Virus record (IMG/VR): IMGVR_UViG_2923307698_000004
DNA length: 57,073 nucleotides
Source: a virus
Taxonomy: Duplodnaviria; Heunggongvirae; Uroviricota; Caudoviricetes
Direction: 5' to 3' (one strand)
Below are positions 31,001-34,000 of this stretch, in pieces. The position numbers are program-made. Every line of letters starts with the position of its first letter. The stretch's first letter is position 1.

Positions 31001-34000
31001 CCGCCAGTGAATCCAGAATCTGCCCCACCCCTGACGGGTCAATACCGATATGGTCCAGTAACTCAGCCTCATGAATGCGACGCACATATTCCGCCACTTC
31101 CGCCGTGTCATCCCCGACACGCCGGACAATGGTCATATCTCCACAGGCAACAAGATCCTGAAACCGGGACGCCTCGCTCTTCCGTCGGACCACCGCGGTT
31201 TCATGCGCCCAGGCATGGCCCCAGCCCAGCCATTCGCGGGTCTCCCGGTCACGCCCAATCACATACATCCCCAGCAGATCATCCAGCCCTCCGCCGTCAA
31301 TCCCCACCGTCACCACATCAGCACGACGCAGGATATCGTCCAGGCTGATACAACGGCCCTGCTCTTCCCAGAAATCAGCCCCCGCCCAGCGGTCAGAGCG
31401 CAGGGCAAGACCAATTTCCACATTGGCGTGTTTTGACATGAACCCCCGGAATGTCTCTTCACCGGCTTCCCGGGCTTTACGGTACTCCCGGTACAGAAAG
31501 GCCTCATCCACTGAATAGCCGAGATTCGGATTGACCATGGCGAGGTTTTCCATCAGCAGGTTAGCCCCGCTTTCCACCATTTCAGGAGGGTGTTCAAATA
31601 TCACCGGCAGAAAGTGCGGATCATGAATTTTGCCGTCGCGCACATCCCGGGCGTACTGCAGTTTCTGTCTGAACACCCCGGCGGGCGGTTCATTCGACTG
31701 GGTGGTCGTATACACCACAAACCCTTCCGGGCGGGAGGCAAGGCCGCCTATGGCTTCACGTAACATGTCCTCCGCCTTGCACTGCTTGCCAAACAGCCAC
31801 AACTCATCAATCAGCGTACCCACGGACTTGATACCGGACACCGTATTCGGATCGGCTGCCACCACCTTCAGGGTGGTGTCCGTCACCCGGTGGGTGATGG
31901 TCCGGATATGGGTCTGTACCTGGCAGAGGTCATCCAGATCATCGTCACGTCGTACCATATCCCGGGCAGGGTTGAAGGCGTTGGCCGCCACCTCCACAGT
32001 CGGGGCCAGAATCGTGTAACCCGCCGCCTGCCGCCAGTTCAGTAACAGTGCAGTCATCATGATCCCCGCGGCCAGCGTGGACTTCGAGTTTTTCTTGGGG
32101 ATAAGGATAAAAACTTCCTTGATATGGCGTACACCGGTCTGCGCATCGTAGGAGCCAAACAGGGCCGCCACCAGGTCAAACACCCACGGTGCACAGGACT
32201 CCCCGAACGTAGGGCTACCAGGTGCATCCACAATCCGCAGTTGTTTAAAAATCGCCAGGGCATGTGCGGCCTCGTCCGGATAAATCGGATCCGGAATAAT
32301 CGACAGCCCCTTTTTCAGGCGCTCTGCCCAGTCCGGGCAGGCTGTGCTCCATACAGGTATCATCCGTTGCCCTCATTATCGTTATTCACCACCAGTCGGG
32401 GTGGCGGTGGCACCGCAAAACGGTTAGCCGCTTTTTTCGCGGCATCACCTTTTGCCGATTTTTTCCCGGTATCCCCTTTTTTATGGTGCGTGAACTGCGC
32501 CAGACGCCAGGCCGCATCCAGTGCCAGTTTCGGATCAATGCAGAGGTTTTCCACCAGGATCCGCCCCATGGCTTTCACCGGATCGGGAAGACCATCCTCC
32601 ATATATTCAATACCAGGAGACATCACCGCGGACGGTGGCATCTCCGGATTGTTTTCGTCCGGCTGTGGTATTGCAGCCGCCTCACGGCGACGGGGTTTAT
32701 CCTCCTGCTCTGATTTTTTCTGCCGGTAAACAGGAACCTCATCCACCTCCACCGTCTCGCATTGTTTACGGGCTATAAACGCAAGCACCTCAGGATCTTT
32801 TGCCAGCTGCGAGCCTTTAACCCTGGCGGTCTTCGCCGAATAACCGGCGGCAATGGCTGACGCTGTTTTGTTTTTCCCGGACATGAGCGCCAGCGCAAAT
32901 TTTCGTTTTTGCGTTGTCAGCACAGCCTCCTCCCGGGTCCAGAACGCACTCAGCCGGGTATGGTTCAGCCCATTTTTCCCGGCGTCTCATGCCGCAAATG
33001 TTAACTGCTGCCTGGTTAACATTTGCTGAAAAAGCCTGTTAACATTTTTTCCGCACAACAAACTGAATAATAAAGATAAAAACCGCAAAAATGCCCGGGC
33101 AGCCAGTTAACATGTTAACTGCCCTGAAACGGGAATTTTTTCTCTGCGTGAGAGGGGGCGCGGTGTCCAGGGCGATCGTTTTTTTTCGCCGGATGATCCC
33201 CCCCGGGTCTGGTCACAGGCCAGTGATTCCGTCGGCCCTGAGCGTGCCATCAGGAAGCTCAGGCAACGTCGGATCAGGCATACCACTCGCCGCTTCACTC
33301 GCTGACTTCTGGCGATGGCATTCAGTACAGAGGGTCCAGAGGTTCGTCTCCTCATTACCACCACCGAACTGAAGTGCAATGCGGTGATCGAGTTCACTGT
33401 CACAAAGGTCAACCACGCGTCTACAGAGACAACAGTGTCCGGCATCCCTCCGCCAGATACGACGTTTGAGGGAAACCCGGGCACTGCCACTGACACGACG
33501 CTGTTCCCCCCTCAGGACATTTATCCGCCGGGTGTTCAGAGTTTTGATTCTGCCCGGTAACGTACGAAGCACAGCCATGTAAAATCCTCGCCATATAGCT
33601 TGTCACCAGAGGAAAGAAAATGTCATCGAAAAACCGGACCCGCAGAACCACAATCCGCAATATCCGTTTCCCCAATCACATGATTGAACAGATCAATATC
33701 GCCCTTGAACATAAAGGTTCCGGTAACTTTTCAGCGTGGGTTATTGAAGCCTGCAGAAGAAGGCTGTCAACAGAGCGTTCGGGTATGAATTACATAATTA
33801 AGTAACATGGTGTTCACAGAACACACAGTTACCGGACACATCAGTTTTCCATTCGTCCCCCGGCAGTACAGGCTTCCCGTCTGACGGGATAGCCTGAAAA
33901 AACACAGAAAATTATTTGTTATAATTAATATAACTTACTCAAAAAAAAGCGACGAGAAAATCAGCATCAACGAGCAATAAGCGCCAATACGTGATAACAA

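Follow-up and report, generated by a model that had tools for sequence, protein, structure and literature searches.

A predicted HNH-assisted cos region with GTTAAC-type repeats upstream of the terminase genes of a Shiga toxin-converting prophage

Introduction

The 57,073-nt virus record IMGVR_UViG_2923307698_000004, hereafter the window (the whole stretch that was analysed), is a long-tailed Shiga toxin (Stx)-converting lambdoid prophage of the genus Pankowvirus. On its minus strand, a gene encoding an HNH endonuclease is followed by a 289-bp gap, the gene encoding the small terminase subunit TerS (GTG start codon at 32923), the gene encoding an HK97-like large terminase subunit TerL and a protease-capsid fusion. 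Part of the gap is occupied by an array of GTTAAC-type repeats. A sequence-only reading had described these repeats as five GTTAAC(A/T) motifs in symmetric arrangement and, by analogy to HK97-like phages, as a plausible packaging recognition site.

In this study, we analyse the gap between the HNH and TerS open reading frames (ORFs) by comparison with related phages. A relative with mapped ends allows the cohesive end to be predicted and the repeats to be placed with respect to the cut. The comparison suggests that the gap contains the cos region of a very common, unannotated packaging module (gene order HNH-cos-TerS-TerL), and that the repeats are most likely TerS sites, two of them ancestral and three added in the Escherichia coli lineage.

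Results

Five GTTAAC repeats cluster between the HNH and TerS genes

GTTAAC cores are found at 33000, 33015, 33038, 33106 and 33114, i.e. five within 120 bp (33000-33119), all of them between the HNH gene and the TerS start as had been claimed. The bases 3' of the five cores are, in this order, T, A, A, A and T. The symmetric arrangement could be confirmed as well and consists of two parts. The first is a perfect 18-bp palindrome made up of copies 4 and 5, CAGTTAACATGTTAACTG (33104-33121); the second is a perfect 12-bp inverted repeat, GCAAATGTTAAC/GTTAACATTTGC (32994-33005 / 33015-33026), whose cores are copies 1 and 2. The outermost copies, 1 and 5, are identical 11-mers. The repeat unit exceeds the hexamer: CAGTTAACAT is exact in three copies and has one to two mismatches in two, and ATGTTAAC is the common reading of all five copies in one orientation or the other.

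The total number of GTTAAC hexamers in the window is ordinary (15 versus 10.2 +/- 3.8 in shuffles), with ten copies in the remaining ~57 kb. Their clustering is unusual. None of 300 first-order Markov sequences exceeded three copies per 125-bp segment, and the cluster has P ~1e-7 by a Poisson estimate that takes the number of segments into account. An explanation of the motifs as HpaI restriction sites was dropped, since nothing in the surroundings points to a restriction system and the hexamer is only part of the motif.

Among the ten copies outside the array, a second close pair, GTTAAC-TG-GTTAAC, is located at 52643-52656 in the early region, ~55 bp upstream of a kil-like ORF (METLLPNVNTSEGCF...). 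Its cores are spaced by 8 bp as in the palindrome of copies 4 and 5. By a rough estimate, the chance for two of the ten copies to lie so close is ~0.02.

The cut site is predicted from a relative with mapped ends

The TerS of phage Lys8385Vzw is 95% identical to that of the window, and the cos regions of both are nearly identical. Lys8385Vzw has been sequenced from particles, and PhageTerm assigned its ends to the cos type, with a 10-nt 3' cohesive end CGCCCCCCCT at the end of the record (PMC7946995). Both ends of the record were read: it ends with ...GGACACCGCCCCCCCT and starts with CTCACGCAGAGAAAAAATTCCCG..., and the minus strand of the window at the corresponding place reads ...GGACACCGCGCCCCCT|CTCACGCAGAGAAAAAATTCCCG.... 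By this homology, the 10-nt 3' overhang of the window is predicted to be CGCGCCCCCT at 33162..33153 (minus strand), which shares nine of ten bases with CGCCCCCCCT. The top-strand cut is predicted between 33153 and 33152, with 33152 as the first base inside the left end.

The homologous end thus falls at the locus under study, not elsewhere in the genome. On a scale that starts at the predicted cut, the GTTAAC cores begin at +34, +42, +110, +133 and +148, the array spans +34 to +153, and the TerS start codon lies at +230. As the mapped end of Lys8385Vzw corresponds to 33162..33153, the repeats would therefore lie within the genome close to its left end, the expected place of a cosB-like TerS site. 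With the cut placed in this way, the GTTAAC repeats are not the cleavage site itself; they adjoin the cut in a cosB-like position. The proposal of a packaging recognition site gains support from this mapping, since only 33 bp separate the predicted cut from the first GTTAAC. The elements of the region are listed in Table 1.

Table 1. Elements of the predicted cos region and flanking genes (signed positions are counted from the predicted cut)
Feature	Position in window	Strand	Basis
G-run then ATCA, cos core, -52..-46	33198..33204	-	invariant in alignment A1; high-information in 100 type B sequences
CGATCG, cos-core element, -26..-21	33173..33178	-	conserved across aligned cos regions
GGACACCGC and predicted cohesive end	33153..33168	-	homology to Lys8385Vzw end; flanks kept in all three architectures
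CTCACGCAGAGAAAAAATT, CTCA and A-tract, +1..+19	33134..33152	-	common to phages and satellites resembling phage-inducible chromosomal islands (PICIs)
Proximal site pair, palindrome CAGTTAACATGTTAACTG, cores +34..+39 and +42..+47	33104..33121	.	same register in 100 unique type B regions
Spacer rich in A/T tracts between proximal and distal sites	33046..33103	.	E. coli lineage only
Distal cluster, three ATGTTAAC-type sites: cores 33038-33043 (+110), 33015-33020 (+133), 33000-33005 (+148)	32994..33045	.	last two sites inside the perfect 12-bp inverted repeat; present in 32/32 unique E. coli-type sequences, absent from type B
HNH endonuclease gene, 121 aa, last before cos	33213..33578	-	Pfam HNH PF01844 E 5e-6; PHROG 589 E 1e-37
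Small terminase TerS	32360..32923	-	Terminase_2 PF03592 E 1.3e-8 (residues 2-57); PHROG 641 E 2e-68
Large terminase TerL, HK97 gp2-like	30702..32363	-	ORF and Pfam; HK97 homology

Other possible sources of mapped ends were considered. A note on 'cohesive ends' in the phi330 record was rejected, as it refers to an arbitrary record break within terS and not to a mapped end. OR845833 (ECO95 1-6-1), a short unverified contig, was set aside. End mapping was not found in papers on Pankowvirus phages, and searches of the literature on the cohesive-end sequence and on phage 2851 were likewise without relevant results.

The conserved G-run of the cos core is the place of an insertion element in other prophages. 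In PPompW prophages (L351:2549-4007, PPompW_699), ISEc20, a member of the IS110 family, sits in this G-run (corresponding approximately to 33198-33204 of the window), and G-runs are present at both junctions. Upstream of it there are tRNA genes and Q instead of lysis genes and the HNH gene.

Related cos regions fall into three architectures

A protein-seeded TerS scan of genome contigs gave no match, and DNA-pattern scans with the cos core were used instead. The first two core patterns produced many chance matches in G+C-rich genomes, which were filtered by requiring a downstream CTCA...AGAAAA. In total, 161 cos regions of three architectures were recovered. The sequence AGAAAA(A/T)(A/T)T at +10..+18 is invariant in all three.

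Type A, the form of the window, carries all five copies and is represented by 32 unique sequences; every named member is an E. coli phage or prophage. Type B comprises 100 unique sequences, with named members from Salmonella (FSL SP-016), Enterobacter, Kluyvera, Buttiauxella, Phytobacter and Entomohabitans. In type B, a pair of the form (G/A)T(A/T)(A/G)AC - AT or GT - GTT(A/T)AC stands in the same register as the proximal pair of the window (+34..+47). Conservation of the motif among related phages is therefore evident for this pair, whose register is the same across ~100 distinct cos regions; these represent at least six further enterobacterial genera. An additional upstream half-site, GT(A/C/T)AAC at -34..-29, is found amid variable non-coding DNA in 91 of the 100 type B sequences (96 if ATAAAC is counted). 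The window lacks this half-site and reads AAAAAA at -34..-29.

In type B the proximal pair overlaps the TerS start codon, which lies at +40 in 96 sequences and at +39 in four. Salmonella phage FSL SP-016 is an example: its TerS is 49% identical to that of the window, the core sequence is kept and the TerS gene begins only 39 bp past the cut. In alignment A1, the FSL SP-016 start context GTAAACATGTTAACAG falls on the proximal palindrome of the window, and the window has ~190 additional bp between this palindrome and the rest of terS. A 24-codon ORF (MLTGCPGIFAVFIFIIQFVVRKKC; 33113..33039, minus strand) begins with the ancestral terS ATG in the proximal palindrome and has its stop codon, TAA, in the third GTTAAC copy. 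Some relatives have a 1-bp indel within this ORF, which is therefore probably a relic and not a gene.

The overlap with the coding sequence permits a look at codon usage beneath the site. In type B, the TerS codons at this place are fixed (Leu2 TTA in 99/99, Thr3 ACA in 98/100), whereas four-fold degenerate sites elsewhere in terS are saturated (Arg7 CGG/CGC/CGA/CGT 34/32/30/4; Ala10 37/25/24/14; Gly16 likewise). This difference points to a constraint at the level of DNA, with effects of translation start as a possible contribution. Farther inside type B terS (e.g. L005:2014-2508), codons 12-15, GCG CTG ATG TCC, are near-invariant in DNA sequence across the 100 diverse sequences while neighbouring synonymous sites are saturated, a second apparent constraint at the DNA level.

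Type C was found in nine contigs. Its core is that of the other types, with G-run and A-tract, and two direct copies of AAAAGTTACAC (GTTACAC twice) follow at +33 and +45. Its context of ~8 kb (L263:1-8000, L290, L069; cos at approximately L263:1648) comprises an integrase, a DUF4222 protein, an AAA_25 replication protein, cos, a Terminase_2 TerS homologue and a capsid-family protein; a next integrase follows ~0.7 kb past the capsid gene. Neither TerL nor HNH was seen in the ~8-kb element. By its gene content, type C looks like a PICI-type satellite with its own TerS and recognition repeats.

The form of the repeats varies with a helix of TerS

Four lineages could be compared with regard to TerS and repeats. 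A TerS helix EKSARSKGSQL goes along with GTAAAC-type sites, EKTARSQGSRL with GTCAAC upstream and GTTAAC-GT-GTTAAC downstream, AKTARVKGSQL (the window) with GTTAAC-AT-GTTAAC, and EKTARVKGWQL (the PICI-like satellite) with AAAAGTTACAC twice. The cut-site core and the A-tract are constant across all four. A repeat form that varies with the TerS helix on a constant core would be expected if TerL and HNH read the core and TerS reads the repeats.

The packaging module is widespread and unannotated

The region of the window is 99.6% identical to that of Stx2a_WGPS6 and 92-99% identical to those of ~90 other long-tailed Stx1, Stx2a and Stx2c phages, including 1717, 2851, BP-4795, JLK-2012 and phi330. 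Of 5426 complete E. coli genomes, 1276 (24%) carry the 289-bp intergenic stretch, the highest number of copies in one genome being seven. Several co-resident E. coli prophages therefore carry one common packaging signal. No annotated feature lies beneath the 289-bp stretch among the matches listed for the E. coli genome search, and neither the cos site nor the repeats are annotated in any of the phage records examined (Lys8385Vzw and the Stx phages of Pankowvirus and Marienburgvirus).

The position of the HNH gene is the same in Salmonella-type relatives. Just upstream of it, on the opposite strand, a 61-aa DUF3950 (YnfO/YlcI-like) ORF is located at 33620-33805 (plus strand), and its place is conserved among Stx phage relatives.

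Discussion

Reading of the repeats

Based on the comparison, we regard 32994-33207 with reasonable though limited confidence as an HK97-type, HNH-assisted cos site in which the ATGTTAAC-type repeats are recognition sites of the Terminase_2 TerS. The HNH protein of HK97, gp74, has a stimulating effect on cos cleavage, and the TerS of this phage binds DNA a short distance past the cut (PMC11331095); for TerS of the SPP1/SF6 G1P family several contact points flanking the TerL cut have been described (review PMC9611059). By analogy, TerL, aided by HNH, would cut the core ...CGATCG-N4-GGACACCGC-GCCCCCT|CTCA..., leaving the predicted 10-nt 3' overhang. The N-terminal helix-turn-helix domains of a ring-shaped TerS would recognise the repeats, in a role equivalent to that of lambda cosB. 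The cut-proximal palindrome would be the ancestral, conserved site, to which the E. coli lineage would have added the ~58-bp A/T-rich spacer and three further copies (+110..+153). The added copies probably allow several TerS subunits, or more than one ring, to hold and bend the DNA and so to place TerL and HNH on the cut.

Several observations weigh against this assignment. The pairing of TerS helix and repeat form is drawn from only ~4 lineages, and their phylogeny is a confounding factor. In the E. coli lineage, +1..+229 is nearly invariant; as the whole non-coding stretch hardly varies, the invariance of the cores (0 variable core columns versus ~2 expected, P ~0.1) is uninformative there. 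The three distal copies are specific to this lineage, and conservation beyond E. coli is limited to two of the five copies; we can therefore only infer a contribution of the distal copies. In type B, the right half-site is at the same time the start codon with codons 2-3, and the left half-site is the spacer between Shine-Dalgarno sequence and ATG, so translation-related constraints could contribute to the conservation of the half-sites. Other type B TerS codons are likewise fixed, namely Lys6 AAG, Ala12 GCG and Met14 ATG (100/100 each), Leu13 CTG (98) and Ser15 TCC (96). Furthermore, the invariant A-tract at +12..+17 could be the real TerS site, in analogy to the A-tract element of HK97. Finally, the recognition role of the repeats is a prediction for the whole family, and the ends of this prophage are placed by homology only.

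Alternative explanations

The A-tract is at the centre of the strongest alternative, which we nevertheless consider rather unlikely. In this case the region is a cos site, TerS binds the A-tract (+9..+22), and the repeats are read by HNH, TerL or a host nucleoid protein, or are structural elements such as cruciforms or bends. TerS of HK97 does bind a single 15-bp A-tract site at +15..+29 without needing repeats (PMC11331095), the window carries CTCACGCAGAGAAAAAATT in a similar position, and its A-tract motif is invariant in the three architectures. The upstream G-run-ATCA element is common to HK97 and the window phage, and both GTTAAC clusters are perfect dyads able to extrude. On the other hand, the TerS of the window belongs to a family different from HK97 gp1. 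The A-tract is the same in satellites with a different TerS while the repeats at +33 change with TerS, the pattern expected of the TerS-specific part. A role of the nucleoid protein integration host factor (IHF) finds no support, since its consensus WATCAANNNNTTR has no match within one mismatch in 32924-33212.

The alignment with FSL SP-016 brings up a second alternative, to which we give a small probability. The repeats might have little or no function and go back to local duplications of the 5' end of the ancestral TerS gene (ATG TTA ACn) that have since decayed. They would be remnants of the time when ~190 bp entered between the old start codon and the present gene, with conservation elsewhere reflecting coding and initiation constraints. 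Alignment A1 indeed puts the FSL SP-016 TerS start (ATGTTAACAG) on the proximal palindrome, with the ~190-bp gap before the homologous CGCAAAAACG. All five copies share one reading, the whole stretch is equally conserved within E. coli, and, by eye, the sequence spanning copies 3 and 4 (ATGTTAACAGG...GCAAAT) matches type B TerS codons 1-9 at both ends. However, copies in both orientations, motifs of only 10-14 bp and perfect dyads are not what a segmental duplication of a coding 5' end would produce. The type B GTMAAC at -34 is non-coding and is kept amid variable flanks. The fixation of TTA and ACA contrasts with CTG at Leu13 and with the saturated synonymous sites, and the actual TerS start of the window has CTG ACA, so that the TTA AC form is retained only together with the site.

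Least probable of all, the dyads would act on RNA or transcription, as a late-operon terminator or attenuator (hairpin 33087-33140 and a U-rich tract) or as an operator controlling TerS expression: the proximal palindrome does lie within a longer imperfect dyad (33087-33097 / 33130-33140) followed by CAUUUUUGCGGUUUUUAUCUUU on the minus strand, the distal hairpin is modestly better than shuffles (z = -2.49) and the type B palindrome overlaps the TerS start codon, but a scan of 32924-33212 for intrinsic terminators was negative, 14 of 200 shuffles folded as well as the proximal element (z = -1.65), Rfam gave no match, type B has the site pair without a hairpin plus U-tract, and a GUUAAC-AU-GUUAAC hairpin would have a 2-nt loop.

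Implications

Taken with the proposed recognition of the repeats by TerS, the three architectures suggest a further idea, which we put forward tentatively and hold to be the less likely outcome. The repeats may be a swappable module of TerS specificity on a shared cut-site core (G-run, CGATCG, GGACACCGC, C-run|CTCA and A-tract). One core would then serve phages of Enterobacteriaceae, an E. coli lineage which expanded from two to five sites, and the ~8-kb PICI-like satellites. If so, satellites with their own TerS and GTTACAC repeats could redirect TerL and HNH of a helper to the satellite genome, and the ancestral TerS start codon inside its own binding palindrome would let TerS limit its own synthesis.

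The cos element is of the expected kind, but it is unannotated and so far undescribed for this family of Stx prophages; to phage specialists it will be useful rather than surprising. Most long-tailed converting phages of the Stx1, Stx2a and Stx2c types carry the cos module. Its cut site and likely TerS sites would define the minimal DNA that Stx phages require for packaging and for the transduction of cos plasmids. They would also help to predict, for multiple lysogens, which prophages can package each other's DNA and which are open to exploitation by satellites. Core and repeats together are a simple signature to orient and annotate these genomes. To our knowledge, HK97 is the only well-studied example of an HNH-assisted 3'-cos system, and it uses a single site. 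If TerS recognition is true, the repeats described here would be the first repeat-type recognition site of such a system.

Comparison with known systems

The analogy to HK97-like phages drawn by the sequence-only reading holds in part. The order HNH, cos, TerS, TerL is that of HK97 (gp74 HNH, gp1 TerS and gp2 TerL), and the TerL of the window is homologous to gp2 (23% identity over 489 aa, E 2e-11). The 10-nt 3' overhang of HK97 is also found in Lys8385Vzw, and at the window locus by homology only. Both systems have a G-run-ATCA element upstream, an A/T tract just downstream of the cut and recognition DNA just inside the left end. The analogy does not extend to the sequences of TerS and HNH, for which no similarity to gp1 and gp74 was detectable by BLASTP (E 0.91 and 1.4). 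HK97 further differs by its single 15-bp TerS site without a repeat array and by an unrelated cohesive-end sequence. In the HK97 sequence (L131:660-733, L130:1-60), GGGGGGGGGATCA is located ~42 nt before the right end, and GTTGACAT directly precedes the gp1 start codon; they resemble the G-run-ATCA element and the GTWAAC-AT context of the window family, with TerS and HNH unrelated by BLAST.

With SPP1 and SF6, the window shares the TerS family of G1P (PF03592), the match to the SF6 domain being weak (TerS residues 10-53 versus the G1P DNA-binding domain 4zc3/2cmp, E 0.19-0.36). The pac site of SPP1, in which pacL and pacR flank the cut, is comparable to the type B half-sites on both sides (-34 and +34/+42), whereas the window has no upstream half-site. 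SPP1 and SF6 differ by headful packaging from pac, in contrast to the cos ends of the mapped relative, and their motifs are unrelated.

In lambda, cosB consists of R3-I1-R2-R1 and is bound by gpNu1 with IHF; several short repeats of mixed orientation lie inside the left end, one of them near the cut and the others past a bendable spacer. The window likewise has short repeats of mixed orientation within ~150 bp inside the left end and an A/T-rich spacer between them. The two systems differ in features that define cosB, namely the ends (3' and 10 nt in the mapped relative, 5' and 12 nt in lambda), TerS (Terminase_2, not Nu1) and the IHF site, the spacer of the window having no IHF consensus. They also differ in the presence of an HNH partner in the window.

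The closest counterparts, which show no substantial difference, are Lys8385Vzw and the Stx phages of Pankowvirus and Marienburgvirus (WGPS6, 1717, 2851, BP-4795 and phi330), which have the same cos region at 92-99.6% identity with all five repeats.

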